Source of the DNA: Barthelona sp. PAP020
Taxonomy: Eukaryota
Reading direction: 5' to 3'
NCBI GenBank assembly: GCA_040182905.1
Contig: JARQWU010000048.1
Coordinates: forward strand, 1 to 48,925
Length of the DNA: 48,925 nt
Within the stretch, counting starts at the first letter, position 1. Each line of letters starts with the position of its first letter. Shown piece by piece: positions 1 through 37,761 of the stretch. Both the position numbers and the translations under genes were made by a program. The notes below the pieces were generated by a model. It searched no databases and was not told the DNA's origin. It saw only the letters and a program-made list of their open reading frames with translations.

Positions 1-3000
1 GTTGAAAGAACGTGTCTATCATCGAGAAGACAAGCAGGATTACAACCGTCAATATTCAAATGATCTAATGATCTCGTTTCTGCGGCACCATACATCGATC
101 CGGCTAACAATGTAATGTTGTGAGCATAAATGTTTGCAAAACCTATTCTTTTACCACCATTCAAAACAAATCTCTTGTTGGGCAAAATGAAACTACCATT
201 GTGATTAAAAATTGCATTTCCATTAATTAGCAGGTCTGCCACCTCAAATCCAGGGGAAATTTTGGAACTTATAATAAATTCACCGCAATTCAAGTCAATT
301 TTAGCGGCTTCATTGATATAATTACCATCAATAAATGTAATTTTAGGAGATTTTCCGCTATTTAATACACCAAGGGTTATATTAGCTTTGTCAAGATCAG
401 CTTGACCAGTCTCAAATTCAAAAGTACCAATTAAAACTTTCATATCTGTAATCCAAGGAAGTTTACTAGTTGATGAGCTTTCAACATTATATCTGACAAA
501 ACTATTCAAACCGTTCACAACAAACCTAATTTGATCAATTGAATTTGAGTTATAAAGATAAACATCACTATTTGGTCCATAAACATCAATCAAACAAGAA
601 ACAATACGAGTATTAATGTAATAGACTTTTGATTCACTGATTTTGAAGCCATTTACAAGATTTACGTATGCAGTAACATAAACTTTCGAATTAACATAGT
701 TAAACAAACCATTGCCATTGATATTGGTCGAAGAATTAAAAATAGCACCACCATTAATAACAGTAGTGACACAACCTTCTTTCAACTGAACATCTGAACC
801 TTCTATCGTTAAATTGTTAAAGTTACCATTTCCAAAAAGTGTAAAAGAACCAACGGCATGCAAATACACCCACATATTAAATTTATGGGTATTTTCACTT
901 TCAATTCTAGTTTCACCCATTGAATAAAAGGTAGGGAATCCATTCTCAGTTGTTCCTTCAACGAAGTAAGTGCATGTTATATCAACATTAACATAGAACA
1001 ATTCAATAACCTTAACGAATGCGGTAGGATGCAACCATAATTCCTTGTTGCCAACAATCCATTGTCTAACCTTAATATACACATTTTCATATATGTGGTC
1101 AACAGAATCAAGAGTAGGGAATTCAATCTTGTTTGCTTCAATTCTTAAAGTTCCATAAACATGAGAATAAGACAATGAAAGGTTTATCACAACAATAAGA
1201 GCATTACATTCAATACACTCATAGTTTGCTTGACCAACATATGCATCATTAACAATCATATCTTGAACGTAGAAAGGATGATGATTGATAAATCTTCCCT
1301 TTGAACTGACTTTAATGGTATCAAAATATGAATTTCCAATATATTTGGAAACGAATAAACCATTATCATACACGTTCAAGAGCTCAGCACCATCACCATA
1401 ATTCATAATAGCAGCAGGCTCTATTTCAAAGATTCCACCTCCATAAACGTAGAATCGACTTTTAATTGTGTTAACGTTGATAATAGATCCATTTCTGAAG
1501 ATTACATTACCTCCATTATTTTTAATTTCTCTTATGCTTTCAATATGACAATCTTTGACAAACATTAAAGACCCAGTGTTATAAATAGTGATATTTCGAA
1601 CATAATCAGTTTCCAAAGTATTATTGAAAAGTAATGTACCATAATTGTCAATTAAACCTTCATCAATTTTTCGGTTTATTGTTGAATAACCATAGTTGAT
1701 CAATTTACCAGTAATTTTTGCACGGTCATCATGGAAGAAAGAACCTGACTCCTTGATAATAAGATTTGAGGTATTCGTATTTTCGAAATATCCTGAAGTA
1801 ATGTTGAATTCATTAAATACATTAAAATCCGTATTTTCCAAAGTCATTTCACCACCAGAAAGAACAACATATCCATAACTATTGGGATAATTTGAACTGA
1901 CAGTGTAACGTTGAATAAAGTTGGTACGGTTGAAATAATGAATTCCATTGGTAAAATTAACTCCAATATTAACATCAAACGCTTTATCATGCATGTTGAC
2001 TTTTGTGGTACCATTACTCGTCCAATAAGCCAAACTGCTTTGATCAGATGGTTGTCTAATGTAAATATTACGAGAAGGATATTCACCATTGTCAATATTC
2101 ATGGTACCATCATCTAAAATGTTGAAAGAAGTTCCATTATACATATTGATAACACCACAAACAATATTCATTGTTCCACTCACTTCAATAGTTGTGATAA
2201 AGCCTTCCTTTGTTGGGCTGCTGAATTGAACAGAATCAGTATCTGCACTACAATCATTGGGAATAAGTTTCATTATTGCCATTTTTGCAATATAAAGAGC
2301 AGTATATTTGGCTCCATGACTTCCATAGAAATATCCACCCTTAAAGATGTAATTACCAAAAAGTCTAATGGTGTTCAAATTAGAATATATTTCTCCACTG
2401 ATCAAAGTAATGTTGTTAACATCGATGAAGTTCTCGTTGTTGAAATTTATAACACCTCCATCAACAAACACATGACTGATATTTTTGGTGAAAGAATCAT
2501 TAATGTTGATGATGCCACCAGTTGATTTCAACAATAAATTATCAGCATCAAAATCAGTAACATCATTAAACAAAAGAAGACCTCCTTCATTGGTGATGGT
2601 ACAATCTTCTAAAAAGTGAACTGTGGCGTAGTTTTTGTACACGACGTTTCCTTCTCCAATTCTCAAAGAATGCATGTGAGTATTTGATGCTGAAGCAAAT
2701 GTGATATTTCCATTTTTGTCAACAATGGCTCCATTGAACTTGTAAATGGTGCCATTAAATACGGACATACCAATTTCATTGTAAAGTTTAAGTTCATCAA
2801 TAAAACTGTCATTGTGGGTAATTAATTTTCCATCATTGATAACACTGATATCCAAATAATCTGCATGAGAATCACCGAATTCAAGTAAACCAGTACCACT
2901 GACAACAATCTTACATTCTAAAGCAAATAATGTTGACTCATTTGCAAATCTAACATGTGAAAAAATAACCATCTTTCCATTTGTACAAGTAAACTGTCCA

Positions 3001-6000: not shown

Positions 6001-9000
6001 TATTTGAATTGCATTTCATGAACTTCTAAAGTACCATTAGTTTCAAAATATAAAGCTGCACCACTGTGAATATTCAAAGTAACGTTTGAACCACCTTTGA
6101 ACCAAACATGTTTGTTTGAAGGCATCTGAATTCCACCATCGGGTTTCACATCTATTGTACCATGATAATAAGATCCTTCACCATCAAAAGTCAAAAATCC
6201 TTTTTCAACGACTAGTTTTCCACTGTATTTTTGATAAATATTCGTCATCAAATATGACAATGTGTTAATGCTGCAAAGGTCCTTTTGAATTAAACCATAA
6301 TTGATGATTGAACCAGTTCCGTTAAAAGTCGTTCTGCCACAAATATGCAAATATGCATCACTATGAACAATCAATTGCGCATCATTGTTGATTTCAATTG
6401 CAGATCCAACTTCAGCAGTAGCATCTCCATAAAGATTTACAATACCAGAATCAATAACTTTTTTGAATTTTTTATATTGGAACTGTAATGAAGTTTGAAT
6501 ATTGGTCACACCACCATCGATACAACCATCTTTAATTATAACTTCGTTAACATTCAATTCACCGGGTCCAATCCTACAAGATCCACAATCTAATACCATA
6601 ATATTGGCTTCTTGTTCTCCCAAAATAGTAACATTTGGTCCACATACTGATACAGTTGTTTCAGCACAAAAAGTAGCATCAGGAGTAAATACAACAGCGC
6701 CCAACCCTTCAACAACAGAATCTCCAGTAATACAGAAATCACCACCAAAAATAAAAGTCTTTTCATCATTGAACTTGACTGTAACATCATTTCCTACCAA
6801 TCTTGTACCTTTCTCAAATACATAATCTTCATCAATTCTCAATTCTTGAGTAACATTGACAACACCATCAGTTGCCTTTCCACCAACTGTTGCAGAGAAA
6901 TACTCCCAATTGGCATATAAAAGTTCACTCTTTTGGAAGAATCTCCATTCAATATTCACACCTTTAGCTCTATCATCACCATACATATATCCATCATTAA
7001 TTAGCTGAGGTTTATAATTATGTTCAGTGATATTATACAAAATACCTTTAATTAGATATTGTTTAATTGTGGGTTTGGGTCTTAAAGACAATTCTAAATC
7101 TTGAACTTCCCACATAGATTCATAACCAATTTTAAACTCTCCAGTGTTGATAAAACTAGCACCATAATCTCCAATAAATTTAGTTTTTCTTTTTGTTTCA
7201 CCATAACCTGCATTCTCAAATGTACATGTGTCCAATAATGAAACACTGATTTGAGGACTAGGGAAACCTGGTGGTAAAACTATTCCATTTGGCCATTCAC
7301 GATCAAAAGTTGTAGTACCAGTACAAACTGTGATTCCTGTTTCACAACAACCACCACCTGACCATTTTGTTTCTTTGCTGACAAGGAAATGATCAGTTCC
7401 ACCACGATAACCACCTTCAAAGTTCAAATAATCAACATAAACAGGTCGCTCATTATAGAACAAGGCAAATCCTGAACCAGTCAAAGTAATTTTTCCAAAA
7501 TACACATCTTCATCTTGTTTTAAAAAGGTGATATTTGAACCAGCAACTGTCAAATTTGCATTTTGTGTGAATAATACACCTGGATGTACATACAAGTTAC
7601 CAATATTTGAATCAACCCCATCTTCAAAATTATTCGTGGTTTGAGGGAATGTAATTGTTAAATCTTCGAAATTCATATAACCAAAAACATGACCAACAGC
7701 GTCATTGGTGACAAACATAATAACTGCATCTGTAACATCAAGAATTGAAGAAACATTGAAGTAAAATACTTCACCAATACCCAAAACAACCGCAGAATCT
7801 AAGAATATTTTTCCGGAAGAAAAACCACCTCTATGAAGATAGAAATAACCTCCAGAAGCAGACAAATTATAGAAATTCTGAACTATTAAAGATAAATTAA
7901 CAGATGATTGAATGTCAACTATACCCTCATTAATAAAATATGCTTCAGTTTGTCTTGAATCAGGAGAACACATCATATTGATTGGGAACTTGATTTCAAG
8001 AGTACCCTTTTTATCATTGATGAATCTAGAATGATTTTCGGATCTGAATTGAGCAAACTCATTTGCAGCGACTCCAACATCCAACAAGGAAGGAGGGAAC
8101 ACAGTGTAATTAAAATTGATAAATGTGGCATTATTCATGAATCTTGAATTGAGACTCCTGTAGATGTACGAAGAATTATGCGAATAAGTTCTTGAATATG
8201 GGCCTAAACCACCACCTCTCCAATGGAATGAATGAAGAATATTCAAAATGTCTTTTCCCATACGATAACCATTTGTCATATAAAAATCGATAATGGAACA
8301 ATTCTTGGTTGTTTCAAATTCAATAATACCACCAGTTAAATTGACTTTTATCAAATCAATAAGAATACTGCCTTCTCTAAAACCACAATATCCATCAATG
8401 ATGAGTAATTTTGTCAATTCTTCAACAATATTGCCTTCTTCAAACAAAAGTCTTCCTCCTTCAATGGATACAACTTCAAAAGTCTCAAAATGATTGTAAA
8501 TAGTAATATTACCACTTTGATATATGTTAACAAAAGCATAATTTGGTTTGAAAATACTTGTTGGACCAAATACTAACTCATTATAGATTGAAAGGTTTTT
8601 ATAACCAAAGCTAACATTCATCATTGTGTTTACCAAGAATTGTCCTTCAATTAAACCACCTTCAAATATCCAAAATTTGACACCTCCATTTTCAAGAAGA
8701 ATAAAACTATTCTTTGTGGCAAAGATATCGGTATGAATTTCAACATATTCAGCAATTGATGTCAATGCAGTCTCAATAATATTGAAAGTCCCATTACCAT
8801 ATGGATACCCATTTGATGAGAAATTATGATTAATGTAAAAGTTGCTTGAAGTGGTAAAGTTACTTACTTCCATTTCAACTAAATTAAGTATGTCCTTGTC
8901 TACAGTCCACTTTGAATTACTCAAAACACCGCATTGACTCTTTATGGAGGCATATTGAACAACTTCACCAACATTTGTGTTTAATAAAGCAACGTGAGTA

Positions 9001-21000: not shown

Positions 21001-24000
21001 TCAATATCTAACAAAGCAGCGTTCGTGACACTATTTAATGAGAGACTAGAAGAGCCCTTAACAATTAAATGCTCAAATTCTAAATCACAATTATTGATAG
21101 TGTATACAGACTTTGATCTGACCGTCAAAGTCTCATTTAAAATTGTTGGAGTATTTATACATTTGAAAGTGGAATCATCACTATTAAACCTGTAAAACAA
21201 AGTTGTAGACTCTTGAATATCAAAAATTGCACCATTACTTAAATAACCGGTAGATAATTTAGTGTTGGCTCTCTTGATGTAGACGTATGCCTTAGAAAGA
21301 GAAATATCTTTAACATCAAAGAAAGTTAAATCATTAAATTGATTTGAATAAGTAATAGAATATGCCAAATTAAATATTCCTGTTTTCACTTCAAAACTTC
21401 CTTGATTAACAATAAATCTACAATTTGTACAACTAACATCTGTGACACTGGTAATATCTGATCCAGATGCTTCCAAATACATATTTGGAGTATAAGCACT
21501 GAACACATTTTCACTTTCCAATGTAGAATCAGTTAAATATAAACCAGGAACATAATTACCTGAACAAAAAGTTCTATCTTGTTTAAATTGAATATTTGCA
21601 CCCTCAAACTTAAAAGCGTATCCAGCAGCAACGTACAAATTATATAAATCAACTTCAGAATACTTATTCGTGATGTGGAAACGCAAATCAGTGTTATGGA
21701 TTGTAAGATCACCATTGACAACAAGTGCTCCCTTCATTGTTCCGCCTAATATCTTAAAATACGCCAATGTACCTTCAAAATAACTATAATCAGAATTAGA
21801 AGAATATGACCCAACGTTAGCACTTTGAGCAGAAAAACCCCATGTATTGCCATCATCAAAATAAATTGAAGCCAATTTCATCGTCAATCCATTCAAATCA
21901 ATATCTTCACAACTATTACAATCCTGGAAATACAAATAACAACGGAAATATTCAGTATAATCAGTGTTTAAAATTACACCAAAAACGGCTCCATAACCCA
22001 TATTCAAATCAGTGATGTCTAAAACCGAACCATCTTTGATATAATTCTTTCTTGTTGCCAAATACAACAAACCACCATTTGAAAAAGCATCCTTAGTCAA
22101 ATGAATCTGAGCATATGAAGTAAATATAACATAATCTTCCAAATAATGTGTATCAGAATCATAAGCATAATTCATACGATGAATTTCAATTGAATTCAAG
22201 GTTAAGGAGACGCCAGCCGCAAAGTATACATCAGGTCTCACCCTTTCATCCCTTGTATTTAAATATAACCTCAACTCAGGTGCATTCCATGTACCACCAG
22301 TTATAGCAAAGTACTCACTAGACAGGATATCCAATCTAGAAGAAAATGTACCAACAGTTGCAAGATTTCCAGTGAAGTAGGCAGGCATATCAATATATAA
22401 AACATATGTGGAAGCAACTCCAATAAAACCACCATAACTGGATAATATTCTTTCATCTGTTTCTGAAAGAGTCATATCATTCGTGGAACTATAAATTGAA
22501 GTGGATGATTCAACATAAAAGTAAGAATATCCATGGTCATCATTCATATTTGAATTGATATACGATTTAAAAGATCCAACAACTCTAAAGGTATTCCCAC
22601 AAAATTTGACTCTACCTGGATGATGCATCCATATAGTAATCCACTCATCAAATAAATCAATAATACCTTCCTTTTTAACTTTTGTATAATAGGTTTCAGA
22701 ATAAATCAACACATTTCCAATAGAAGTGACATCAGCAGCCCAATCTTGAACAATATCTGTGCCTCTTTCGGCGTAATTATTTGAACGTCTCAAACGAACG
22801 GTTCCAAACAAATACAATTTATTCAAAGGTCTAAAATGAAGATGAATTATAACATCATCCAAAACAGCTACTTCTGTCACATAAATGCATGGAAAAGAAG
22901 CTCCAATTAACTGTGTTGAACCGGTGGCAACGAATTCACTAAAATAAACATCTTTTCCATGAGTTCGTCTGACATCTAGATATGCTCCAGTAAAATAGAA
23001 ACTGCCCAATTCAACATGAACTTGATAGCCTGAAATGTACAATGTACATCCGGTATTGATAGTTGCTGATTTAATTGTTGGTGAAACAGTCACATCAGAA
23101 ATTGAAACTTTAATATTTGCAGATGTCATCAATTGATCAATGGTAAGATCATCATAAATATTGTTTAAATTTAACGTATTATGAGCATCTATTGAACCAA
23201 CATGAATGGGATTTCTAACATCTTGAAATTGCAAAATAGTTCCATAATGAGCTATTGTGCTGAAAGTATAAACCTTGTTGTGTTCAGCACCATCAACATA
23301 CAAAGAACCACCAGAATTGATTGCTGTTGTGGAAACATGAATGGTTCCAACAACGTTAGTGAATGAACAAACAGAACTGGTAATAATCAAATTTTCAATA
23401 TGGATATTTGAAGATAGTGAAAAATGAACCGAAGAAGATGATTCAACGACAAGTGTTGTAATTCTAATATCAACTCCTGATAGAGCTGTGGAGAATGTGA
23501 AGCTACTTCCACCAGATATAGTAAGAGTATTCAAATACCAAATATTATCAATACGAAGAACAGGTGGTTGATGCAAAATCAATTTACCACCGCTACTAAT
23601 GGAAATATCAGTAAAATTATAAACAGAACCAAGAACGAAATGGAATACACCACCTTTAATTGTTAATACAGGACCAAGTTCCCAAATACCACCAAAACGA
23701 ACATAACCAGTAGAAGAAGTGGTGAAAGTTGAACCCAATCCTTTCAACGCAACACCATTCATAACAGTAAAAGGTCCTTGAACCTCTAAAGTGGATGCTA
23801 CTTCTCCTGCACTAACATCAGATAATGTAATGTTATCATTGACAGTCATTGGAGATGGCAAAACCAATCGTGAACCAGGTAAAATAATTAATCTTCCTGA
23901 CAATTGTAATCTGAAATCTATTGTAATATCAGAAGCCACTGTCATATCCCCATTTACAATCAACAAAGGTAATTTGTCGATACCACCTGTGGTAAAAGTC

Positions 24001-27000
24001 AAAGGATAAACAACAGCACTGGAACTTTGTGCTCCCGAAGCAAAAGAAGCTCTGACAGTTCCTTCACCAATGAATCGAATAATGGAAGAAAAATAGGTGC
24101 TACCAAACTGAATTATAACATTGTCACCAACTCTAAATAAAGAATCATAATCTTTAAAATAATAATCATGCTTGAATAAAATTTGAACACCATTACCAAC
24201 AGTGTGAACAGTTTCAGCATTCATGACTAAATATTGACCTAAAATATCTAAAATAACATAAGATTCCAATGTACCACCTAAAAATGTGGCACTGTTAGCA
24301 ATTTTAAAATACACAGGACCATTTAAATAACCAGAATACATAATAAAATCATTCAAAGTAATATTGTTAACGATCAATTCAACTTCTGAATTATCTAAAA
24401 TAAACTCCTCAGTATAAATTGATTCAATTTCACTAATCACCAAAGTAGATTGATCCCTCACATTAAATCCATTCAAATATAAAACTTCTGCATTGCTTAA
24501 ATGTTTACATCTTTTAATAGAAAGGGATGCTTGAATTAAAACAATATTATCAACCAACATTGAACAATCTTCAAATTGAATATTGACTTTTTGTAGAGAT
24601 AAATCATTCAAGATTTTAATAATACCTCTAAAAAGAATATTCGTATAATCCTTAGTCCAAACTAACCCTGATGCTGATGTACTTTCCAAAATAGTTTCAT
24701 AACCAAACTCATAATTATCACCATATAATTTTAATCCAGCACTGACACCACTCAAAAGAAGTTCTCCATTGAAATATGCATCAACATTAACCCTCCAATA
24801 ACTGTTATAAAATTCCATAACAGATGAAGCTCCCAATTCAGGTCTAATGTACGTAGTGAATTGAGAATTGGTCACTATCCACTTTCCTTCATTGATAAAC
24901 ATACTGTATCCATAACTGTCATAAAAAGTCAAATCATCTAAAACTTCAACTGTAGCACTGCTGCCAATATTAATTTTCCAATCATACCCATTCATTGCCA
25001 TGTTAGAACTTACTCTCCAAAAAGTGTAGATGTTTAATATTGTTGTATTCTTGACAGTTAAAGAACTATCAGTTTCCCAAGAACCAATATTTAGCTTACA
25101 AGTGGACGACTCAGAATTGAAATCAGTTTCTAAAATTTTCATGTAATCAAATTGAATAGTTTGAGCACAATCCAAATTTGATTGATACAAATACAGAAAA
25201 TCTCCTCCAAACTCAACACAATTTTGAGTTAATTCCACATTATCCAAAAAGACAATACCTTCAATTGTGATAACCGCTCCAGTAACCGTAAGAGTTGAAC
25301 TTTTCATGAAAAAGATGTCATAACTCTTAATTACTTGAATGTTTGTTTCATTAAATACAGTTTGATAATCATAACTTGTTTCTTTCTTAAAATCTAACAC
25401 TGTAACATAACTTAAAGAATGTAACGTTAAATCTGTTGTCACAATAGAATCAGTACTGAAAATGAACGATTCTCTGAATTGAATATACACAGTGGATAAC
25501 TCCATATCCAAATTATAACCAAAAGTTACATATCTACTCTTTACAACAATGTTTGAGTTGTAAATTTTTACGAATTTCATAATTGTTTCATCATTAGTGA
25601 TATTGTATTTTGAATCATAAGTCTCTAACCCTGTTTCGGCAAATACAACTGCATCAACTTTGAAATCACTGTTTCTTACATAATAAGAAGCAGAATGGGA
25701 ATTGATATTCAATTGATTTCCAATGAAATCAATATTTCCATTGTCTGTTGAATCAAATATTAAATCAAAAATCTGAGATTGAACATTCAATACACCTTCA
25801 GTGACAGTTTGACAATCGAACACAATGTAATTTCCACTTGTTACAAGCAAATTAGGTTTTGTTGCAGTTTCAAAACCTTTGAAACATAAATTTCCATGTT
25901 TAAAAACAGTGACTAAATTCAGCAATTCAGAATCAATTCCTTCAAATTCAATTTGACTTGATTCACCATTAATATTCATATCATTGAAAATTGAAAATCC
26001 TGTGAAATTTGCTGTAGCAGAAACAAAATTCAATGAGGATGAATCATAACGATTTGCTTCAAGCATTATTTCATCAACAGAAATAAAATCAAAAGCAGAA
26101 TTACTTCCATTCAGTATTGAACCAGCAATTTTTTCAGTAATATTAACAAATAAATTAGAATTATCAAAAATAGGCAAATCAAAAGTTATTGAACTTGAAG
26201 TGTGAACTTTCATGTCACATATATCCATCATTCCAATAACATTAATATTGGCCACATTAGAAAAATCAAAACTAACATTAAATGCACTTGTACTGTTCAA
26301 ATCAAAAAGATTCCCTTCTTTCAAATTGAAATTAACAACGTTTAAATCATCAGTTAAAATTCTGGTCTTTTGTGAATTATTCAAATCAAATAATGAATTT
26401 GTTATGTTATTTGAAACATTTAAACTCAAATTGTCAACATTTACCACATTAAACTGAGACTTATCAATTTGATTAGAAGTGTAATTTCCCAAAGAATCTA
26501 TATCATGTAAGACAAAATCAACAGTGTCAATTATTTCAATATTGGTTGCATACAGCTCTATAATATCATGATAATCAATTGAAGAATCTGATAATTCAAT
26601 TGTGGAGATACCTCCACTATAATTAACTTGATTCAATGTAAAAGAAGATTCTTTAATAGAATTTTCAACAACAATACCTTCTAAAGTTGAATTAACAGTT
26701 GTATAAGTAAAAGTTGAATTGTAAATATCAACACTTTCAATTCCTTTTACACTATTAACTCTCAAATAATTTATCGTTGAAGAACTGATTTTTGAAACAA
26801 ATAAACCACCATACTCAATATCAATATCAATATAATCTAATTTGGAATCAATCATTTCAGTACATATTACATTTCCATGTATCTTTTGAATTTTATCATA
26901 ACTAAAGGAAGAATCAACCATCTTAACAACATCTATACTACCACTGTTGTTTCCATTGGAATATTTAATAATGGAATTAAGCATATCATCAGAAGTAATC

Positions 27001-30000
27001 CAACCACTATTGGTAATTTCATCAATAACAAAATTAGAATGATAAAACGTGTTACCCAAAATATTACCATGCGTATCACCAATAAAAGCAGTATATGTAG
27101 AATTTTTAATATTTGTAGAATCAATGCCGTCAAAAATACTCACATCATACAATGTAAAAGTAGATTTAAGCATATCAGAAACTTTTAACTTGTAAAATTG
27201 TTGTACTTTATCAAAAGAAAACACTGAATCTTCAAAATAAGAACGTTCATTCATTGTAATATTGAAATCAGTAGCATTAAATATGATAAAAGTACTATCA
27301 ATACTAATTATTGGATCAAAATTTAGAATACTACAATTCACCGTTTGGAAAATAACATCAGTGAAATCAATATGGGTGTTCAAAGAATTGGTAAACTCAT
27401 TGTCCACAACAAGGTCCATAAAAATAGAAAATTGAGAATATTCAGAAAAATGTATTTTCATTTCATCAATGTTCGTCAAATTCATTGAACTAATGTTATC
27501 TTTTACAACTGTTTGTTCAGAAGAACGTTCAAGTTCATCAATTGTCAAATAGATCATTGAATCAACAGTTAAATTACCTATAATGGAATAACTAGTCATA
27601 TATTGATAAAACCCAAAACGAACAACCAATTTTCCTCTTAAATCCAACTTATAAATTTCATTGGAAAAAATCCTTGTCAAATCAAAATAAAAAGACCCTT
27701 CAGAACCAATATAAAGACTTGTAAGATTTTGATCAAGAGACGAAGAAGCATTAAAAACAAATTTACCTGATTCCCACTCAAAATCTGTGGATAATCCATA
27801 AAAACCTTCATACAAAACATAAGCTGAATCTTCAAAACCGTAAATCTTCGAATTTGTTCCATTTATTGTAGTTCCTTCATCAACAATTAATGATCTAATG
27901 ATATTGATAGAACAATCAATAATGTAACCACCGCTTAATCTGGAATTTGTTCCCAAAACAGTAATATTAGAAGAAGATGTAAAAGTGGTAGAATCAGCTT
28001 TCATTCTTGTGTATGAACCAATAACTAAATTAGATTCCACAATTACTGGCTCAAGAAATTCAATAATCCCATTAATTTCAGTATTCAAATCCGAAAGTAA
28101 AGCATTTGAAACACATTGGGAAGTGGGACTATATTGATAACGCATTGTACTGTTTTGATAATCTGTTAAATCATGTATACTAGCATTATATTTGTCAGTG
28201 ATGTTACGATCAATATCAAAAATACAATATTTGAAAGTAACATCTTGCATCTCATATGTATAATCACTAATATTCCCATCATCGTCATAAACTGGAACTG
28301 CTACTTCCACTTCCTCGGTTTTAAGTTCCTCAGATTGGAGGTACATCGGATAAAAAGCACTCTTATTGTCTAAATGTTCATATCTTGCATCAGACACATT
28401 GTGTTCAATATCTTGACAAATTTTTGCCATTTCAGTTTGCAAAATGTCTGAATCAAACAAATATTCTCCATATTTTTGGGATAAATATTCATCTTCCCAA
28501 CAAATAGCCTTCCAAGAAAAAGAAGTATCAAACAATACATCACCACCCAAAGTAATGGGATCAATGAATTGCAATAAAGAATTGGGAGCAACTTTTAAAA
28601 CAACATCATCAAATCTTTCAGCTTTAACAACATGAAACTCAGCACCCATACCAAGATAAATATCACATCCTTCAATATTATATTCATCTACATCTTCTTC
28701 AGGAGCAAAACGACGATTAACAGCCAGAACGTGATCCCAACCCTTCAAAACATTAACTTGACAATAGAATCTAAATTCAATCTCAGAATCAAAAATTCCA
28801 CCATACCAATACATGATTTCGTCAAAAACTAATTTGTCCTCAATCTGTAACAAAGGTACCTTGGTAAATTCACCATAATGAATCAAAATGGGATTTCCAG
28901 TGGAAACCTTAAAATCACCTCCAGACAATCTAAATTCATGAAACTCAAATGGTTGCAAACTGTAATCAAGATTGAATGATCCACCTTGAAAATTAATAAA
29001 CCATTGGAAGTAAGGATTAGTATCATCTCTATACGTAACACCATATTGGAACTCAGTAGAACCTCCAGATTGATTAAAGTATAAGGTAAAATCAGAAAAC
29101 ATACAACCATCCATAAACGTCAGTTGTCCATCTGTTTTTTCAACAATTCTCAACCCTTCAATTCTTGCATCACCAGTGAAATAAATATCACCACCGTATA
29201 TGTACAATTCACGAAGATACAAAGGTTTTGCTCTGAAACCTACTGTACCATTATAGATCATAAAACTACCATAGTAATACATCATTATCATTGAATTAAA
29301 TGTTGCACTTCCCACTTTTGAGTCAAAAATAAAATATCCATTTGTTGTTTGTGACAAAATATGACTATAGAATTGAATGGTCCCATTAAAAATACCAATA
29401 CCATCATTAACAAAGTAATTATTACCCATATGATTAAAATCACATTCAGCCAAAAAAGTTTTGCCTTCATTGATGTGAAAGAATCCAAAATTTGAAAACA
29501 AAGGGTTGGTTTCAGTGGATGCTGCTGCTTGATTTGAATAAATGGTAAAATCAAACACATCAATTGTTGCAGAATTATCAGTGGATATTGTGCAACCATA
29601 ATCAAGAGTAATAGATCCTTCACCTAATGTAAGAACACCTCCTTCAACATGAATCGCAGAAAAAGGCTCAAGAACTCGATTATGATTGCCAAGAAAAGAC
29701 ATCACAGTAGAAGCCTTCAAAATAGCAAAACCACGAAGATTACACTTGTACATTTCAACTTTAATTGCTGAAAGAACAACATTATAATCAAATACTAAAT
29801 TGACTTCATTTGCATCTGAACCTAAATATAACTCACCTAAAGAAATTGACTTCTTCATCGTGATATTTACTGTTGTTTGAATTTTAACGTTAGAATTAGC
29901 AACAGGGGCTAACCCTTCACTCCAACAAGCATCTTCATAAAAATCGTGTTCACCTTCACAAATATATTCGTTGTAGGCTGAACTACAAACGATAATTAAC

Positions 30001-30032
30001 AGACTAATAAATAAATAAAATCGCAAACTCAT
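1..30032 (-). CDS. Giant secreted/surface beta-solenoid-like protein, at least 10,010 aa, 3' end outside the window
   Basis: ATG at 30032 (in-frame TAG just upstream at 30060-30062) reads MSLRFYLFISLLIIVCSSAYNEYICEGEHDFYEDACWSEGLAPVANSNVKI. The same frame was open wherever I translated by hand (around 27 kb, 20.4 kb, 15 kb, 11 kb, 7-8 kb and 3-300). The ORF track has no minus ORF in this frame, which it would if an in-frame stop existed. Codons are strongly T-ending (GGT, GTT, GAT, ATT) throughout. Confidence 0.92.
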   Translation of the reverse strand, partial: MSLRFYLFISLLIIVCSSAYNEYICEGEHDFYEDACWSEGLAPVANSNVKIQTTVNITMKKSISLGELYLGSDANEVNLVFDYNVVLSAIKVEMYKCNLRGFAILKASTVMSFLGNHNRVLEPFSAIHVEGGVLTLGEGSITLDYGCTISTDNSATIDVFDFTIYSNQAAASTETNPLFSNFGFFHINEGKTFLAECDFNHMGNNYFVNDGIGIFNGTIQFYSHILSQTTNGYFIFDSKVGSATFNSMIMMYYYGSFMIYNGTVGFRAKPLYLRELYIYGGDIYFTGDARIEGLRIVEKTDGQLTFMDGCMFSDFTLYFNQSGGSTEFQYGVTYRDDTNPYFQWFINFQGGSFNLDYSLQPFEFHEFRLSGGDFKVSTGNPILIHYGEFTKVPLLQIEDKLVFDEIMYWYGGIFDSEIEFRFYCQVNVLKGWDHVLAVNRRFAPEEDVDEYNIEGCDIYLGMGAEFHVVKAERFDDVVLKVAPNSLLQFIDPITLGGDVLFDTSFSWKAICWEDEYLSQKYGEYLFDSDILQTEMAKICQDIEHNVSDARYEHLDNKSAFYPMYLQSEELKTEEVEVAVPVYDDDGNISDYTYEMQDVTFKYCIFDIDRNITDKYNASIHDLTDYQNSTMRYQYSPTSQCVSNALLSDLNTEINGIIEFLEPVIVESNLVIGSYTRMKADSTTFTSSSNITVLGTNSRLSGGYIIDCSINIIRSLIVDEGTTINGTNSKIYGFEDSAYVLYEGFYGLSTDFEWESGKFVFNASSSLDQNLTSLYIGSEGSFYFDLTRIFSNEIYKLDLRGKLVVRFGFYQYMTSYSIIGNLTVDSMIYLTIDELERSSEQTVVKDNISSMNLTNIDEMKIHFSEYSQFSIFMDLVVDNEFTNSLNTHIDFTDVIFQTVNCSILNFDPIISIDSTFIIFNATDFNITMNERSYFEDSVFSFDKVQQFYKLKVSDMLKSTFTLYDVSIFDGIDSTNIKNSTYTAFIGDTHGNILGNTFYHSNFVIDEITNSGWITSDDMLNSIIKYSNGNNSGSIDVVKMVDSSFSYDKIQKIHGNVICTEMIDSKLDYIDIDIEYGGLFVSKISSSTINYLRVNSVKGIESVDIYNSTFTYTTVNSTLEGIVVENSIKESSFTLNQVNYSGGISTIELSDSSIDYHDIIELYATNIEIIDTVDFVLHDIDSLGNYTSNQIDKSQFNVVNVDNLSLNVSNNITNSLFDLNNSQKTRILTDDLNVVNFNLKEGNLFDLNSTSAFNVSFDFSNVANINVIGMMDICDMKVHTSSSITFDLPIFDNSNLFVNITEKIAGSILNGSNSAFDFISVDEIMLEANRYDSSSLNFVSATANFTGFSIFNDMNINGESSQIEFEGIDSELLNLVTVFKHGNLCFKGFETATKPNLLVTSGNYIVFDCQTVTEGVLNVQSQIFDLIFDSTDNGNIDFIGNQLNINSHSASYYVRNSDFKVDAVVFAETGLETYDSKYNITNDETIMKFVKIYNSNIVVKSRYVTFGYNLDMELSTVYIQFRESFIFSTDSIVTTDLTLHSLSYVTVLDFKKETSYDYQTVFNETNIQVIKSYDIFFMKSSTLTVTGAVITIEGIVFLDNVELTQNCVEFGGDFLYLYQSNLDCAQTIQFDYMKILETDFNSESSTCKLNIGSWETDSSLTVKNTTILNIYTFWRVSSNMAMNGYDWKINIGSSATVEVLDDLTFYDSYGYSMFINEGKWIVTNSQFTTYIRPELGASSVMEFYNSYWRVNVDAYFNGELLLSGVSAGLKLYGDNYEFGYETILESTSASGLVWTKDYTNILFRGIIKILNDLSLQKVNIQFEDCSMLVDNIVLIQASLSIKRCKHLSNAEVLYLNGFNVRDQSTLVISEIESIYTEEFILDNSEVELIVNNITLNDFIMYSGYLNGPVYFKIANSATFLGGTLESYVILDILGQYLVMNAETVHTVGNGVQILFKHDYYFKDYDSLFRVGDNVIIQFGSTYFSSIIRFIGEGTVRASFASGAQSSSAVVYPLTFTTGGIDKLPLLIVNGDMTVASDITIDFRLQLSGRLIILPGSRLVLPSPMTVNDNITLSDVSAGEVASTLEVQGPFTVMNGVALKGLGSTFTTSSTGYVRFGGIWELGPVLTIKGGVFHFVLGSVYNFTDISISSGGKLILHQPPVLRIDNIWYLNTLTISGGSSFTFSTALSGVDIRITTLVVESSSSVHFSLSSNIHIENLIITSSVCSFTNVVGTIHVSTTAINSGGSLYVDGAEHNKVYTFSTIAHYGTILQFQDVRNPIHVGSIDAHNTLNLNNIYDDLTIDQLMTSANIKVSISDVTVSPTIKSATINTGCTLYISGYQVHVELGSFYFTGAYLDVRRTHGKDVYFSEFVATGSTQLIGASFPCIYVTEVAVLDDVIIHLHFRPLNKLYLFGTVRLRRSNNYAERGTDIVQDWAADVTSIGNVLIYSETYYTKVKKEGIIDLFDEWITIWMHHPGRVKFCGNTFRVVGSFKSYINSNMNDDHGYSYFYVESSTSIYSSTNDMTLSETDERILSSYGGFIGVASTYVLYIDMPAYFTGNLATVGTFSSRLDILSSEYFAITGGTWNAPELRLYLNTRDERVRPDVYFAAGVSLTLNSIEIHRMNYAYDSDTHYLEDYVIFTSYAQIHLTKDAFSNGGLLYLATRKNYIKDGSVLDITDLNMGYGAVFGVILNTDYTEYFRCYLYFQDCNSCEDIDLNGLTMKLASIYFDDGNTWGFSAQSANVGSYSSNSDYSYFEGTLAYFKILGGTMKGALVVNGDLTIHNTDLRFHITNKYSEVDLYNLYVAAGYAFKFEGANIQFKQDRTFCSGNYVPGLYLTDSTLESENVFSAYTPNMYLEASGSDITSVTDVSCTNCRFIVNQGSFEVKTGIFNLAYSITYSNQFNDLTFFDVKDISLSKAYVYIKRANTKLSTGYLSNGAIFDIQESTTLFYRFNSDDSTFKCINTPTILNETLTVRSKSVYTINNCDLEFEHLIVKGSSSLSLNSVTNAALLDIEISEASTATLNTVTSNLLDYIVVIGASVMSNQDVEFQNMKQLLVNGGSKFTTNIGQFNSLEYIEVVSSSYLTITSAIHHIHNVSFIDSYITIDNFKFKAKDASDNLIGAGLIMDGCSFDMRNSIFGFSFFEIDGSTSFYLYNSEFVNCNNITIKNSYIKHIFQSNTIGEIYKFYLYKTAWSIKWQTLKASIIKIESSKFYVNYGGIMEADVIELISTTFYNDGVTTVDTGSSRTCSIQATNFTISGCQTNELTYFSNIVVDKFVIDSSSVDLFVYQKIETPILTTSGDVDFRMSEIFGSVNIGKIEDSISSTNILRFRDIKNFNVAEIIIHGKIYHHNVDSAIIDNLQSVNGYIEFLSTNTYVILKNIDLAGATLKFNSLTNVTIHSLIQRSFASFSTIGVAKSLSYSHQWYSGSIESDSTSRYILDNVVAISDQKKTLIGEHSCIESCMFDVGEFHAKPLADKTLGQLHINAGVSLELILNQTFFIDNDDYQFTVAGNMEISIDSESVFYPSIYVASSGEVQILSVIKMSGKYTIFGLMNFAEDFYCLGAYYLIKSTGALTTTNLESKLLGDTCAVRIEGGLTISFDIVEAVEMILYGSSSYADMNYLRSDKSASITCSSCNYLNINEVTVADNVYLNANNGNIKIEKIESKTVEFAGSFDWNYFSNSEPPLSPVYDKVFLEVGNLFASTMVKLSGGYVYVDYMEIANLYIETKSFFSFYTFNMIDGGKITTLAPYMLINYGPWNLTKIGWHRSLYESFCESKWINYGGMIVGTTLEQIPSPLSSYKKTTYILYNYEQFVQLSSTNFEIPMVIDNHYNVSIGANSNFEDLGENSYVHDNATLYIEPSANINSDRIYVGGLMNVSGDIIIKNHIVITSEGQLIVNENASVAFNDQLTIEEGGQVEISGDVYIGNTINIYGDIYITETGFFHNVDLEESSGLIYIQESGSITSEINIFTDAPVIVAGGYNVPIFKYSNPDASIDFRETARLGFQAIEIFTGEVSFQNFCPTLPMQYIILSTGKLDIKSNCILSLDLVNITNNAQFIISARGINIDYLYNDADFDIISRQSLDWSSVFDVEKWENHGSIQDASTSGVLFQGKNYTNFENSEFILHGGNFIVERFLHLTSTQITFNSLVKIDITYAHFVSPLVVHDFTTFSIGDANFESLVSIYDGNNVELPLYTTSADIRMNNILIAITLPSTIRTFGKLLYLIDVPIVSVDNIILDSGSFEFLNNQINTNYMYMNDASMLKGSTGGVINVDSFEWYGGVIYSETEVFNFNVNNFTVFTDNNFVTKKVQFVISDDMYVDNDWTVDTDSYSTLKFIDQSKAIFKGIFTTTTSFSVVATASSYLLFEKGFVSYTSFSINEGSTLKFQSGDVEFRRDVSLGVTAFKWATLEFAEDVEVIFNSGRLIAAQNTVILPSNITMRFKNHNGQCTASTGVMTPLIKGHFFPKTLFIESSGVFGLGSGSTHNLQNVLVEQGCLMFNGAIFNESTTLTTRIDCDSSNLGGIIYDNVKNDLPIYNHVSSSSCYHHYRNVIGYSISVDENLAFENGGHFYFSGDFTDEQYLTIANLTLDNDSSWKFDSSIYTNRVLIEQLTLKSGSISGSDSISVDYTLMTTGSFTHVSIYDLDVFSYDAVTFNDVLIYGQVVLDGFANVNIYNDFSIRSSGIVNVTTGRVFVYYGRMVIGGTFNPECHFTFPSSTVFESTGIINIADFCIFQPANNAQVSSTVNLGINSVLSIRASYTFTLTSTGKLLGEGEMEYLDDCVINIYGTYLLSDTFTQTVNAAVLFSGSRLSIVNLYCSKGTITLYRVSAEDGGKWVVNSAVNTDTGRIIFDEFEDEMEMTTLLVSGGITSFSEIDTSINYNEIKITGGYVIFDTGADIYLERLIIDGGWRDGTDRVFVNELIWISGGFLGPADTIVAVKTTISGTDEHHIMGSGHQLTLKGEFYAEDRLEVFACNGINRIHIYADSYISGSILFRSNPIPTGGPIWADSYGSWLLGCATDSSWCSSNPPDSVMLKIHKPQCHYMVTFIPSGLLPVDYYVEYLDESFTFLPYSTTASSLEVDYKGTMNITSSGEFAMFDRGLQISENSIIHIYGTFYPKVGLNVDATSEIIMYPNSNWKAYSCLTLKCQIYGSVSLAPGYTYTSSNIPAFNFYSMYKKVGYVKTEKYKCGHYIKDYEYVTKYCTRRYWAYDSTRTSPYIYFEANSLFDFTNMVLSGGTIDFLDNSDAIFKNITLIGGNMYVRGISRQLEPTKILISGGSLYFYNYAYLSFPYLQMNGGTLGSGSVATTLDISETFTWQGGVLNGVYLFVNSLKSTIIKGTALKQLSSSTFTNKGIIDIEESGPIKLYQKGYFINEGNISIIGSFTFEGKLPSTYEGNYVTTPRRSYFINRHYMFIKYPSQLVTFEVHFASSADSHLIVENGNLMFKQGGSIEGELLMEDSTNNLYINDASNYANAFFVYDGTPSMIFTSTSSVLLSQGLLDVYRPTIVQVSGSFVVKNSMNLNSINFIGLSGANAEIGNINTYHCTVDFQSGSSLTGTNSVYLNYYSTFVLNTGILITFNSLTFINSYRSGTDHLHVIESFIWRGGGFGDSTTTSLYGNSQVYRVDNLMLGASAKLINYNRIEFVESLQYSKLSEMPTTVITMYAGATIINQATGTFYFATNFQFSEVSSSSFVNEGNLIVLCNMILPSSFENKNIMNIGTLAEHVKYTRYVYGTTFVNNGHLTIDGRVQVGGSTFVNGNKTIVENGVSSVFMTHVSSYTGSIWDINYGSVYLYYYGSHDGTINLIHSSSRLYLLLPTYTVKVIDKTFLGIVIDYHYETRYYDPEGTFTFGVNSIINACEGQFNDDRQPILIRGQYESCNHLTFSNTDVTLENMALIEGNSISITDSTVRFVNSDFQFDSWTIVNSQVYFEGSKQVGFSTTFDVTNSNLYLNGGAQIELSSMNFVNAHFYGTDKVIFRDKLVVNASFFHESLKLVNNGEMYFRSSPVALNEQVSLWNNGILIIESEDPNATPSNMPWFLLQFGRDAYFNNSGVVKVNTNWQMYSGTFMNYGTMEIMYSIDSQDTSHLLNFGTLNFVCSGYFGYSPSIVVQHFSNYGTMSTCTAMKFKRLSDNSIFENYGTFKLLSDVDFSVKYSSYTNSYTEMHANAISFYVNTVWNAELRSTSYTNFRLLGGTHLFSHDQVTLDHTFIVGSDASVTFEHSTIYMQDKPMEISGYVKFVDFTWLKQVKDIIISGEVEFISLNDPVSLDSVVLSGIVHFDTTNTTSITDLSIIDGGIRMGGDLLRISNLDWQSGCFVGLDSVKTTSIIENYGSIKSTGSKCIRNNTELINRADIVFSSTEEPLSLNYEDVTYITIEFSNGFFVNEKYVSFGTSVALIGGSFINSENAVTNILMNLIVGEDFINKGMVMVTPTNTKVLDEARNITVGSFINYNLVTSNVNAHFATCKEGNFTNYAELKFNTGLVSFIIDFYDNSSINAESLLFSRKVNLNGTYLLSNRTHFIDYDDVYMKHKLNDPMIFMAPIDNGRTISIVDTLFNSEDIHIQGFSGIISNSNIVSLYDDMFKSLTIVDSDIAFINVLYNVSITIESENIFNLDLDKLLIAMNYQGSVVSLDNMTISCYLFDLSTGTDLMDITNNNTMSMKLYMIDSSVEFYNVVYNWTIVESGKYFNSSLISRVDNIVFNITSVDSMFIANNVNFNWLLKDSTDNQFSLVDNLIFDASFVNSNVTFIDTVFKWDAYIDNALDLLLLRSFSSIDSALIMNNSTFVDNSLNMEIFMNLTHQNSVLTLEDINFDSNITHCSFESSDVSMKNIMFVKYFDYFESFDSSIYLYNNTIELLRNLSITTTNLSIIESKIDYYLNVYSVQSFLYVEALDMYFLSDLVDVTSSWISINTKEDAIFKDLSFTKSKRDGTTTLYVSTIHWYSGFFFNNSYSVFNETFVYLEDETGVVDNSTIDWIISTTFIEASEDYLVLNVWNTSLIQNYGDLQIHQSIWFNCSDDGTHVALLNTNVGEVVQYASIKSQCGVLSNSKWTVDKDILNLVEMEVSNFTTSSNFYINHNFSSNGYPYGNGTFNIIETALTSIAEYVEIHTDIFATKNSFILLENGGVKFWIFEGGLIEGQFLVNTMMNVSFGYKNLSIYNELVFGPTSIFKPNYAFVNIYQSGNITIYNHFETFEVVSIEGGRLLFEEGNIVEELTKLLIIDGYCGFREGSILIDLIKVNLTGGIIEFETTKNCSIIDFYMTNGYRMGKDILNILHSFHWRGGGLGPYSRTYSHNSSYIYRSLNSRFMNNATFINFNYTVFPPSLLDVGVAANEFAQFRSENHSRFINDKKGTLEIKFPINMMCSPDSRQTEAYFINEGIVDIQSSVNLSLIVQNFYNLSASGGYFYLHRGGFSSGKIFLDSAVVLGIGEVFYFNVSSILDVTDAVIMFVTNDAVGHVFGYMNFEDLTITFPQTTNNFEDGVDSNIGNLYVHPGVLFTQNANLTVAGSNITFLKQDEDVYFGKITLTGSGFALFYNERPVYVDYLNFEGGYRGGTDHFLVSKETKWSGGGCCETGITVCTGTTTFDREWPNGIVLPPGFPSPQISVSLLDTCTFENAGYGETKRKTKFIGDYGASFINTGEFKIGYESMWEVQDLELSLRPKPTIKQYLIKGILYNITEHNYKPQLINDGYMYGDDRAKGVNIEWRFFQKSELLYANWEYFSATVGGKATDGVVNVTQELRIDEDYVFEKGTRLVGNDVTVKFNDEKTFIFGGDFCITGDSVVEGLGAVVFTPDATFCAETTVSVCGPNVTILGEQEANIMVLDCGSCRIGPGELNVNEVIIKDGCIDGGVTNIQTSLQFQYKKFKKVIDSGIVNLYGDATAEVGSAIEINNDAQLIVHSDAYLHICGRTTFNGTGSIINYGLIQKDLCSINTLSYLMTNIYQKYSGKLVVEKGFLTFDGEGSYYHGTIDVKPDGGIQMPSNKHVWFKGGSNVTLNIHSGAALYFETNGTLEVHEMQFKYNASDYVHLAGHLIFDKQVYIHPMTFDIRQQSVAFVDINCSNHEFKRLDMYTNGILNVSIPNCPLIIDESIIDNGIIVGDKSSHLILNDTTIHNIMAEDVFLTIFDGILEGESVIRNFSNMNIHLNNTTEMRTEKIYLDNVILNTTKPTSVIVTTGNVELHGTNSTLNVNEGLFRVDQGTAELYLDVIIGNVTQVNSTLNIKSNIINNGLLFIQNGGVVNNKGNVTSYSVLDIDGVWNDFNLLTVLDGKIDSAVINSDINSNIFLNESVSIQLFMNNIDGHVLLSNNRVDVLKINLLTGVLEMFNTDLSESYLQMQNANVMVSNLTWIRHVNWLMEDSSEVTFNSSNLGLEANSKFVGKSSSSVSIDEMNTLMFLGSTIELYDDAIFSINSTYNKMYDIVLNITDAHFSSTTLDTTISSHFSTLNMTGENSTIYIQEGFITEFNFFSGILFGGHFKLDKLLMTSIEQKSFENQVFVELFGYGEWNKGVIMGDEFVTFRIAKGSLLNMTLNNGLMDVTNRTSDDRSLLRINGDVSLTGSETIYWRVELDNGNLTLTEDAHVIFESNVTGIYNTLASNITINDRAIAEVHYGFDLQENCGLVGKGYFKITDDDAYVTLDGYLNVLGLVYIDAGLLDLRDTQIAYLPLEWIGGIVLMNEVYGNDIFIEIVFDEDHYQWIENNDLNSVTIVHQYDKLVEYGPCEINWINHRHMYDNSSTIFHNDSLISSIEFPDIQGGDVLFEEDAQSTIMNVNMNGGLFNVSSNAHLTIIGCFVVNDGILLLYDGAVLDSQIYPCITINQTGYVEIYSLYDGYVEIVDLTMDLDGTLNEINGNSIDITNSFNFQGGHIDANTTVRIVNDALGTFHTKTLKTLGNMSELIILDGKIEVYPTKVADCPECGLIDLKRGSLVLFKSPKATFEIMNDDCSYDSITIGSLVIPTVFENVENYGSWNLSELNRVKIEKGASFNVRSTLFSKTILFVDQLSKFSIVGENVVVEVYSPMEIHGQFTCTNGKMVIFSHVRFANESTLFALECKIVVSGTGLLEFGDSHADYLDISVINDGKLITHNDSFIDELKLYNEIGMSVFNGTIYKFNGAIVDKNGNITFASASNTHMHSLRIGEGNVVYKNYATVHFLEDCTITNEGGLLLFNDVTDFDADNLLLKSTGGIININDSFTKNISHVFVDGGVINFNNENFIDVNNITLISGEIYSNLNTIRLFGNYIFKGGYFYGSHGAKYTALYIAKMAIMKLIPNDCSADTDSVQFSSPTKEGFITTIEVSGTMNIVCGVINMYNGTSFNILDDGTMNIDNGEYPSRNIYIRQPSDQSSLAYWTSNGTTKVNMHDKAFDVNIGVNFTNGIHYFNRTNFIQRYTVSSNYPNSYGYVVLSGGEMTLENTDFNVFNEFNITSGYFENTNTSNLIIKESGSFFHDDRAKITGKLINYGYSTINRKIDEGLIDNYGTLLFNNTLETDYVRNITIYNTGSLMFVKDCHIESIREIKNNGGNVIFRNGSIINVNTIKSRFYVYGGGIFEIEPAAIMNYGDGAELLNVYDNGLFVSKYIGNSYFDTIKVSSKGRFINHHPFYVQDMIVNDAYVGQANYECIECNALIVVINLSLSYSHVYGTLRIEANKIEFPTLDSVDHIYENVYIKVRQWIVGNKELWLHPTAFVKVIELFYVNVDITCTYFVEGTTENGFPTFYSMGETRIESENTHKFNMWVYLHAVGSFTLFGNGNFNNLTIEGSDVQLKEGCVTTVINGGAIFNSSTNINGNGLFNYVNSKVYVTAYVNLVNGFKISESKVYYINTRIVSCLIDVYGPNSDVYLYNSNSIDQIRFVVNGLNSFVRYNVESSSTSKLPWITDMKVLIGTFEFETGQADLDKANITLGVLNSGKSPKITFIDGNYINEAAKIDLNCGEFIISSKISPGFEVADLLINGNAIFNHNGSFILPNKRFVLNGGKRIGFANIYAHNITLLAGSMYGAAETRSLDHLNIDGCNPACLLDDRHVLS
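6500..16250 (-). repeat. Degenerate higher-order protein repeat (~280-390 aa spacing) marked by a GGxRxGxD...WxGG motif
   Basis: Motif copies near 16200, 15330, 14170, 13290, 12140, 11165, 8265, 7410 and 6570, e.g. DGGWRDGTDRVFVNELIWISGG, INSYRSGTDHLHVIESFIWRGGG, TNGYRMGKDILNILHSFHWRGGG, EGGYRGGTDHFLVSKETKWSGGG. Confidence 0.65.
26350..27240 (-). repeat. Protein-level tandem repeat of ~21-22 aa (about 13 units) in the giant ORF
   Basis: KSTFTLYDVSIFDGIDSTNIK / NSTYTAFIGDTHGNILGNTFY / HSNFVIDEITNSGWITSDDML / NSIIKYSNGNNSGSIDVVKMV / DSSFSYDKIQKIHGNVMYTEMI and onward, with consensus x-S-x-[FIL]-x-[YL]...G. Confidence 0.75.
29976..30032 (-). other. Predicted signal peptide of the giant protein
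   Basis: MSLRFYLFISLLIIVCSSA: basic residue, hydrophobic core and small residues (S-S-A) before a likely cleavage site. Confidence 0.8.
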
Positions 30033-36445: not shown

Positions 36446-37761
36446 TCAGTTATCCACTAATTTCCATATTGAACATGTTTGATCTTTTGACCCTAATATT
36501 AAGGTATCACCACTATAATTTAAATCGAGACAAAAGAGTTCTCCCTGATGAGATACTAAAGTTTGCAAACATTCACCAGTTTCAACATCCCAAATTTTAC
36601 AAGTTTGATCATCGCTTATCGTAAAAACACGTGTTCCAGCAGAATTAAAACGAATTTTGGATACTTCCTTCTCATGACCAACCAGAGAATGAATAATTTC
36701 TCCTGTTTCAACACTGTAAATATTTGCAGTATGATCCACAGAGGCTGAACCAATATATTGACAATTCAAAGAAAAAACACAATCAACAACTTCATCTTGA
36801 TGACCCTCAAGAACATGAATCGTTTGTCCAGTATATGAATCCCAAAGTCTCAAAGTATGATCACTAGAACAGGAAACTATATATTTACCTGTAAAATCAA
36901 ATTCAGCCATAAAAATGCTTTGGGAATGACCTTCAAAAATCATTAAACATTCACCAGTTTCAGCATCCCACACACGACAAGTAGAATCATAAGAAGTGGT
37001 CAAAATACGGGCACCAGCCGTATCAAATTTGACACTGATAACCTCTTGTTCATGACCAGTTAATACATGAATACAATCTCCTGTTTCAACATCCCAAACA
37101 CGACATGTGTGATCCATAGAAGATGAAGCTACAATATCACTTTGAGGTGCAAAAGCAACCGATAGGACTTCACCTTCATGACCTCTTAATCTGTGCAATT
37201 GTTTTCCTGTATTTGTATCCCATAAAATCAGTGTTTTATCAAATGATGCAGTCACAAGTTTGTCGCCATATGGTAAATTTAATGCAACAGCAAAAACAAC
37301 AGCTTCATGACCCATCAAAGTACGAATGTTCTTTCCAGAAGATGTCTCAAAAATTCTACAACTCATATCATAAGAAGCTGTTACAAATAAATTTCCACTT
37401 TTGTTGAACGATACAGCAGTAAGAGCAGGAAGATGTGCTCGTAAAATTTTATATATTTCAAATTCTCCTTCATCATTAGAATGTTGAACTTCTATTAATC
37501 GTTCTAAAAGACTAAGAACTTGACCACGTCTTCTCTCCTTAATTAATGGTTCTGCCTGTAATATTTGGCTGGTATAAAAATCAAGATCTGAACTACTAAT
37601 TAGTAAATATTGAACAAAACAAAATTTGAATACTTTCTTGACAAAGATAATAAATCAATACTACGTGTTTTTAATTCACCATCTTCTTGATATTCTAATA
37701 TTAATCCTGGAGGATAATATCGTAATAAAAATCGTTGCAATCGAGATCTCTCAGTGTTCAT
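36446..37761 (-). CDS. DAW1: Dynein assembly factor with WD repeats 1 (DAW1/WDR69/ODA16), two exons: 37761-37634 and 37592 (or 37595)-36446, ~424-425 aa
   Basis: Exon 1 encodes [38 protein letters not shown], the DAW1 LLRYYPPG N-terminal signature. Removing a GT..AG intron joins it in frame to the WD40 ORF with [30 protein letters not shown] and [10 protein letters not shown], which follow DAW1. Confidence 0.93.
37593..37633 (-). other. Short spliceosomal intron in DAW1 (41 nt, or 38 nt with the proximal AG)
   Basis: GTATTCAAATTTTGTTTTGTTCAATATTTACTAATTAG(TAG). Phase 2, restores the reading frame, with a branch-point-like TACTAAT directly before tandem TAG TAG acceptors. Confidence 0.88.

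Follow-up and report, generated by a model that had tools for sequence, protein, structure and literature searches.

The right-handed parallel beta-helix is shared by bacterial adhesins that are exported as rods, such as the SRRP binding region, pertactin, Vag8, HMW1/HxuA and the tapirins. The fungal Hyr/Iff-like and Awp proteins (PF11765) are also eukaryotic beta-helix surface proteins, each with one beta-helix domain of about 300 aa. For example, in the accessible text of a report on yeast, Awp2 adheres, and no adhesin role was confirmed for Awp1 and Awp3 (PMC8746771). The trichomonad Pmp-like proteins combine a metamonad surface location, a bacterial counterpart, a beta-helical body and a role in adhesion, according to the available part of the source (PMC6701047). 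Giant beta-helix chains are known in bacteria from the accessible portions of two preprints (bioRxiv 10.64898/2026.03.19.712371 and 10.1101/2023.11.21.568195). In the first of these, Cag_663 and Cag_665 of Chlorobium chlorochromatii, giant single-chain parallel beta-helices of 12,000-14,000 aa, are proposed as discharged or penetrating devices. Few eukaryotic proteins exceed 10,000 residues, and titin and the PKZILLA enzymes are the extremes named in the available text of bioRxiv 10.1101/2024.01.29.577497.

In this study, the window (the whole stretch of 48,925 nt that was analysed) was found to carry a gene of at least 10,010 codons on the minus strand (3..30032), whose 3' end lies beyond the window and whose product has a mass of at least 1.12 MDa and a pI of 4.6. 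By analogy, this giant protein would work most like the bacterial beta-helix adhesins and the fungal Awp/Hyr proteins. It differs from the bacterial adhesins in having no detectable sequence family match, in its eukaryotic secretion and in being several times longer, and from the fungal proteins in that the helix apparently makes up the whole rod. Awp3b fitted our unit model with Z 11.8 (rmsd 3.1, 182 aligned), and the PF11765 cut-off was not reached (residues 5895-6025 scored 16 bits against 28). Cag_663 and Cag_665, as described in the accessible preprint text, are unlike the giant protein in being bacterial and in carrying near-identical repeats that are predicted to bind calcium. Two other identities were rejected: Pmp-like, because the repeated motifs GGA[ILV] and FxxN are missing (GGA[ILV] occurs once, and FxxN 62 times against 56 expected, the chance level), and the polyglycine-type giant rods, because the chain has no run of 4 or more Gly. 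The definition of the unnamed repeat unit in the chain ties a protist to bacterial surface proteins, and the giant protein is a concrete target for studies on the molecular basis of attachment and prey capture in such flagellates.

The giant reading frame

The first-pass annotation had described a minus-strand frame that is open from ATG 30032 to the window edge, and full translation from 30032 to 3 with tables 1 and 11 gave 10,010 residues with no stop. The stop-to-stop frame has 10,019 codons, begins at 30059 and reaches the window edge without closing; at the given base composition, such a run would arise by chance with a probability of about 10^-359. The window edge interrupts the last unit (3..308, minus strand) beyond its core; therefore, the gene continues and its full product must exceed 10,010 aa, which agrees with the earlier figures of more than 10,000 aa and more than 1 MDa. 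The gene had also been called intronless. Six intron-like patterns were found in the frame, four of which break the frame, and the two in-frame ones have coding-like GC (0.33 and 0.37), so the term stands within the window. The gene is real and unusual, and the observation is confirmed. An alternative genetic code was rejected, as table 6 gains nothing for the giant frame.

A rival explanation is that the frame encodes no real host protein and stems from a misassembly, a pseudogene or contaminating bacterial DNA, and the existence of bacterial homologs for the repeat would fit it. Several results speak against this. The codon use of the giant frame correlates with that of all four neighbouring genes compared (r 0.81-0.96), and its GC1/2/3 values of 0.37/0.34/0.22 include a host-like GC3. 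The longest DNA repeat family in the gene is 63 nt with 60-71% identity, and near-identical copies are absent, which excludes an assembly collapse. The neighbours are eukaryotic and include the intron-bearing flagellar gene DAW1; a collinear eukaryotic relative exists; and the N-glycosylation sequons are zoned along the chain. We believe that this rival is largely refuted and hardly credible.

Repeat unit, predicted fold and relatives

Comparing the chain with itself revealed a degenerate repeat whose core reads GG.R.G.D...W.GG...F.N.G and whose copies are most frequent at residues 4750-7960. In this main WxGG/FxNxG array (residues about 4750-7960; 6153..15785, minus strand), the cores lie mostly about 290-390 aa apart, with a mid-chain spacing of about 330 aa, and extra copies occur near residues 1850, 3350, 4230, 8780 and 9160. 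The combined profile gave 14 matches above the controls, which cover 24% of the chain and of which 12 were training rows. Conservation within the unit is strongest at columns of the structural residues G, W, F and N. Searches of four long and 51 short pieces of the protein against Pfam and NCBIfam gave no family at its cut-off, in line with the earlier statement that no catalytic domain and no EGF, Ig or LRR repeat was recognised; the cadherin family profile did not reach its cut-off either, and the RTX motif GGxGxD does not occur in the chain.

The unit at residues 7201-7420 (7773..8432, minus strand) was modelled with AlphaFold2 using 13 units as the alignment, and the result was all beta, with a pLDDT of 81.3 and a pTM of 0.83. 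By comparison, 600 residues given as a single sequence reached a pLDDT of 34.5. Compared with 48,161 chains, the unit model fitted right-handed parallel beta-helices end to end at 3-4 A. Left-handed helices fitted it at about 12 A. The list of matches was led by adhesins, with SRRP 5nxk at the top (Z 13.4, rmsd 3.7, 199 aligned) and Vag8, tapirin, Awp3b and pertactin among the further high matches. Tailspikes and lyases fitted at Z 10-12.5, interleaved with the adhesins and within 1-3 Z of them with no standout, so the fold leaves the function unfixed. Foldseek with the unit model returned nothing at E up to 0.001 in the PDB or BFVD, and a PDB sequence search with the repeat profile returned one chance match. 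The model thus predicts that the unit forms a right-handed parallel beta-helix with three-sided coils of about 20 residues, the pectin-lyase-like fold that is common in adhesins and lyases.

The first-pass annotation had inferred a very long beta-solenoid from alternating hydrophobic and polar residues. As a simple i/i+2 pattern, the alternation did not hold, because the lag-2 autocorrelation over the chain was -0.006; the peaks were at lags 7, 14, 20-21 and 27, and the actual period is 7/14/20-21. When each segment was scored with the period learned from the other seven, the 20-21-residue rung period appeared in all eight segments (leave-one-out z 2.2-9.2), against -0.9 to -0.4 in three neighbouring proteins. 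The solenoid itself is in keeping with the unit model and the chain-wide periodicity, with the confident model spanning 220 of the 10,010 residues, and this periodicity suggests that the three quarters of the chain outside the unit matches may be beta-helix as well. A beta-helix rises 0.48 nm per rung. At this rise the known part would extend up to 234 nm, or 116 nm if scaled from the Chlorobium model, from which we infer a rod of roughly 120-230 nm or more.

A single-sequence HMMER search of residues 6401-7600 against 1.84 billion representatives gave one match (E 2.3e-12), GEMRC1_008520 (KAL0244436.1; hereafter P0002), a hypothetical protein of Eukaryota sp. GEM-RC1. We equated this organism by name with Skoliomonas GEMRC of the BaSk metamonad clade, as that strain is given in the accessible text of PMC11316075. 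P0002 is collinear over about 950 residues with residues 4653-5649 of the giant protein (13086..16076, minus strand), with 237 of 899 positions identical (26%) and a score of 398, against 229 for the next region and at most 69 in 30 shuffles. Inspection of the two sequences showed that they share cysteine-bearing insertions at about residues 5000-5040 and 5165-5210. In the unit tree, two of the three P0002 units were nearest to the position-matched units, and the third was nearest to the unit at 7206. The order of units is therefore probably old. P0002 differs from the giant protein in its listed length of 1,012 aa, and it is likely a piece of a longer gene, which suggests that gene callers may fragment such giant genes. 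Word-seeded searches gave nothing at E up to 0.001, either for residues 4300-7700 against proteins of 5,500-17,500 aa (486 candidates) and of 30-5,499 aa (7,987 candidates) or for the repeat alignment against proteins of 386-2,000 aa (7,996 candidates).

The unit was also found in PVC bacteria. With the protist profile, three of 401 planctomycete genomes gave matches at E up to 1e-5, which lie in frames of 1,677, 3,159 and 9,613 aa, and none of 301 verrucomicrobial genomes did. A bacterial query detected it in 10 of 301 verrucomicrobial genomes, in 3 of 401 planctomycete genomes (one of them the query's own) and in 0 of 301 Chloroflexota genomes; the carrier genomes and loci included G145, G103, G388, G002, G054 and G652. 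In the opposite direction, a bacteria-only profile of 68 units was run on the giant protein; its seeds lean towards the protist unit, as they had been collected with the protist profile. This bacterial profile matched 10 places with more than 11.5 bits, the highest score in the controls (one reversed and five block-shuffled copies). Its best score was 60.6 bits at residues 5249-5449, and it gave 4 matches in P0002. Single units used in pattern scans had no match in bacterial genomes, viral contigs or metagenomes, and tblastn of units gave none in plasmids. Judged by these reciprocal profile matches, the unit of the giant protein is homologous to a PVC bacterial surface-protein module. The PVC proteins likewise have tandem copies, are large and exported, and may have an N-terminal cap in common with the giant protein. 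Their copies are usually similar within one protein and rich in Gly/Thr/Ser, whereas the copies in the giant protein are deeply diverged (end branches 1.5-3.7). The PVC carriers either terminate in PEP-CTERM or have the unit embedded among Ig, cadherin, Calx-beta and RHS domains; the giant protein, in contrast, has N-glycan sites and no other recognised domain in its chain.

The unit tree was built by a quick method from 52 units, with at most two units per bacterial locus (36 of the 68 bacterial units were kept). Protist and bacterial units were split at a support of 64 with long branches, so the tree gives no donor or direction. A transfer of the unit from bacteria is plausible from these matches, with other eukaryotes barely sampled. 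The giant protein had been put forward as a possibly undescribed class. This is partly borne out: neither Pfam nor NCBIfam lists the unit, but its fold is common, it has PVC homologs and a metamonad fragment matches it. No description of the giant protein or its unit was found in the literature, including the supplements of the BaSk paper, with subscription papers and bioRxiv supplements outside the scope of the search.

Two observations were made on the bacterial carriers themselves. A planctomycete frame of 9,613 aa (G388:C18; L131 8564-19999, L132 and L133) contains many cadherin/Ig domains, six or more beta-helix units, and Calx-beta, IgGFc-binding, PKD and RHS repeats, and an RtcR-like regulator adjoins it. 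Four further loci (L129, L130, L136 and L156) encode PEP-CTERM-type proteins that consist mostly of the same unnamed unit, with periods of about 230-450 aa, and this unit is a candidate for a new family model.

Predicted export and N-glycosylation, and possible function

The chain had been said to start with a signal peptide. Residues 1-19 (29976..30032, minus strand) combine a basic residue with a hydrophobic core and end in small residues, and their hydropathy of 1.88 is the maximum of the chain; this N-terminus is signal-peptide-like by hydropathy, with an inferred cleavage site. In the rest of the 10,010-residue chain, no membrane helix was seen, and the other 19-residue windows had a hydropathy of at most 1.66. 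A putative N-terminal beta-helix cap follows directly after this segment at residues 21-59 (29856..29972, minus strand). This was the chain-best match to a profile of seven bacterial N-caps, a weak match at 7.3 bits against 2.6 in the controls, and pairwise comparison of the caps stayed at shuffle level. Residues 20-146 had no Pfam match at E up to 1. Atlas searches with the cap region gave G8 (0.82) and Amnionless (0.77), which we treated as leads only, as all Atlas matches were at most 0.90. The bacterial cap matched Amnionless at E 0.003, below the family cut-off; amnionless has capped right-handed beta-helices in the accessible text of PMC6283879. An acidic, non-periodic insertion was also seen near the N-terminus, at residues 560-620 (about 28170-28355, minus strand).

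The NxS/T sequons are strongly zoned: their variance over 20 fixed windows is 3.79, a value that never rose above 1.42 in 200 shuffles. Residues 501-1500 (25533..28532, minus strand) form a sequon-rich, glycine-poor and acidic segment, in which the rung period is present, with 32 NxS/T against 18 reversed. Residues 1501-6500 (10533..25532, minus strand) form a sequon-poor zone and a candidate exposed binding surface, with 36 NxS/T against 64 reversed (p 0.007), compared with 133 against 76 outside this zone; the borders for both counts were set after viewing the data. Residues 6501-9500 (1533..10532, minus strand) are sequon-rich, with z 2.1-3.8 in five of six fixed 500-aa windows, and are a candidate glycosylated stalk. 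No sequon bias was found in the bacterial units (326 against 302 reversed), and P0002 is unlike the giant protein in having no sequon depletion (11 against 11 reversed). Selection for or against sequons would give such zones in a protein that passes through the ER, and the zoning argues indirectly for expression of the gene and secretion of its product. The earlier reading of a secreted protein is supported in sequence by both the N-terminus and the zoning.

Studies on barthelonids and Skoliomonas have described attachment. In the accessible text of these papers, barthelonids attach by the posterior flagellum, and the flagella were naked in the sole strain examined by SEM (PMC13087550); one Skoliomonas isolate sticks by a spike and forms double-walled cysts (PMC11603281). 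Neither attachment nor cysts are linked to a protein in the accessible parts of PMC13087550 and PMC11603281, and the words glycocalyx and extrusome are absent from the barthelonid and Skoliomonas morphology papers. The genomes of the group are 10-33.5 Mb in the available text of PMC11316075, and a secreted giant that is nearly wholly beta-helix would be a large investment in genomes of this size, which would point to an important surface task.

The first-pass annotation had offered a surface coat, an adhesin, a prey-capture filament or an extrusome component; these were not told apart, and an adhesin or surface fibre seems to fit best. On balance, we lean towards a glycosylated rod that projects from the cell surface and serves as a fibre for attachment to substrate or bacterial prey. 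The product of the gene, of which the window covers the initial 10,010 codons, would pass into the ER, carry N-glycans in zones and form a single long right-handed beta-helix. The stalk (6501-9500) would be stiffened by glycans, and the binding zone above it (1501-6500) would be poor in glycans and bear loops tied by cysteines. A membrane anchor may follow at the C-terminus beyond the window, and adhesion would proceed without catalysis.

Three other functions were weighed against this attachment fibre. An anchor-free secreted structural fibre (a coat, cyst wall or mucus-like matrix, possibly a multi-chain bundle) would suit an acidic, very long and glycan-zoned protein with no anchor within the window, and one Skoliomonas isolate has double-walled cysts in the accessible text of PMC11603281. 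However, deeply diverged units that are position-matched to a relative and carry specific loops exceed the needs of a plain scaffold, and the bacterial homologs are surface-sorted proteins; we consider this function rather unlikely. Still less probable is a tailspike-like beta-helix that degrades prey or binds capsules in the feeding groove or food vacuole. The fit of tailspikes and lyases, the bacterivory of the likely host group and the recurrence of Arg and Asp in 7 of 13 units favour it, but none of the enzyme families in Pfam or NCBIfam scored at its cut-off, conservation of the charged columns goes no higher than 7 of 13 rows, and the recurring Arg and Asp are missing from the bacterial unit consensus. 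A discharged or penetrating device, such as an extrusome shaft or needle, seems very unlikely: its size and fold would resemble Cag_665 (20,647 aa, about 240 nm model, in the accessible text of bioRxiv 10.64898/2026.03.19.712371), but the word extrusome does not appear in those morphology papers, and the giant protein has no RTX motif.

The attachment fibre may also be placed in a wider scenario, which we put forward tentatively. A metamonad may have taken up a PVC-like beta-helix module early, expanded it to a megadalton chain, fixed the unit order and zoned its N-glycans. The outcome would be a so far undescribed surface filament of 0.1-0.25 micrometre or more with a glycan-free binding zone, used for capturing bacterial prey or for holding on to surfaces, and hidden in databases as short gene-model fragments.

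Neighbouring genes

The gene directly upstream of the giant gene and co-oriented with it (30693-36254, minus strand) encodes a four-domain voltage-gated Na/Ca-type channel of 1,853 aa. It is followed by the dynein assembly factor DAW1/ODA16 (36446-37760, minus strand), which has a 38-nt intron of 18% GC whose branch point abuts the 3' splice site; a fused branch point and 3' splice signal fits metamonads. The neighbouring genes indicate a flagellated eukaryote, and the single homolog P0002 together with this intron style makes an anaerobic metamonad the likely host. A small, probably spliced gene of about 100-140 aa (38064-38480, minus strand) is divergent from a gene on the plus strand (38514-41012) that encodes a purine nucleoside phosphorylase domain and then about 550 aa with no Pfam match. 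Worn PNP copies in this extension were suggested by eye and not confirmed by self-search. A coiled-coil protein of 1,384 aa (41265-45419, plus strand) had no Pfam or PDB match and may resemble the ciliary protein CEP290. In the product of the last gene (46220-48199, plus strand), a protein kinase domain is joined to about seven ankyrin repeats.
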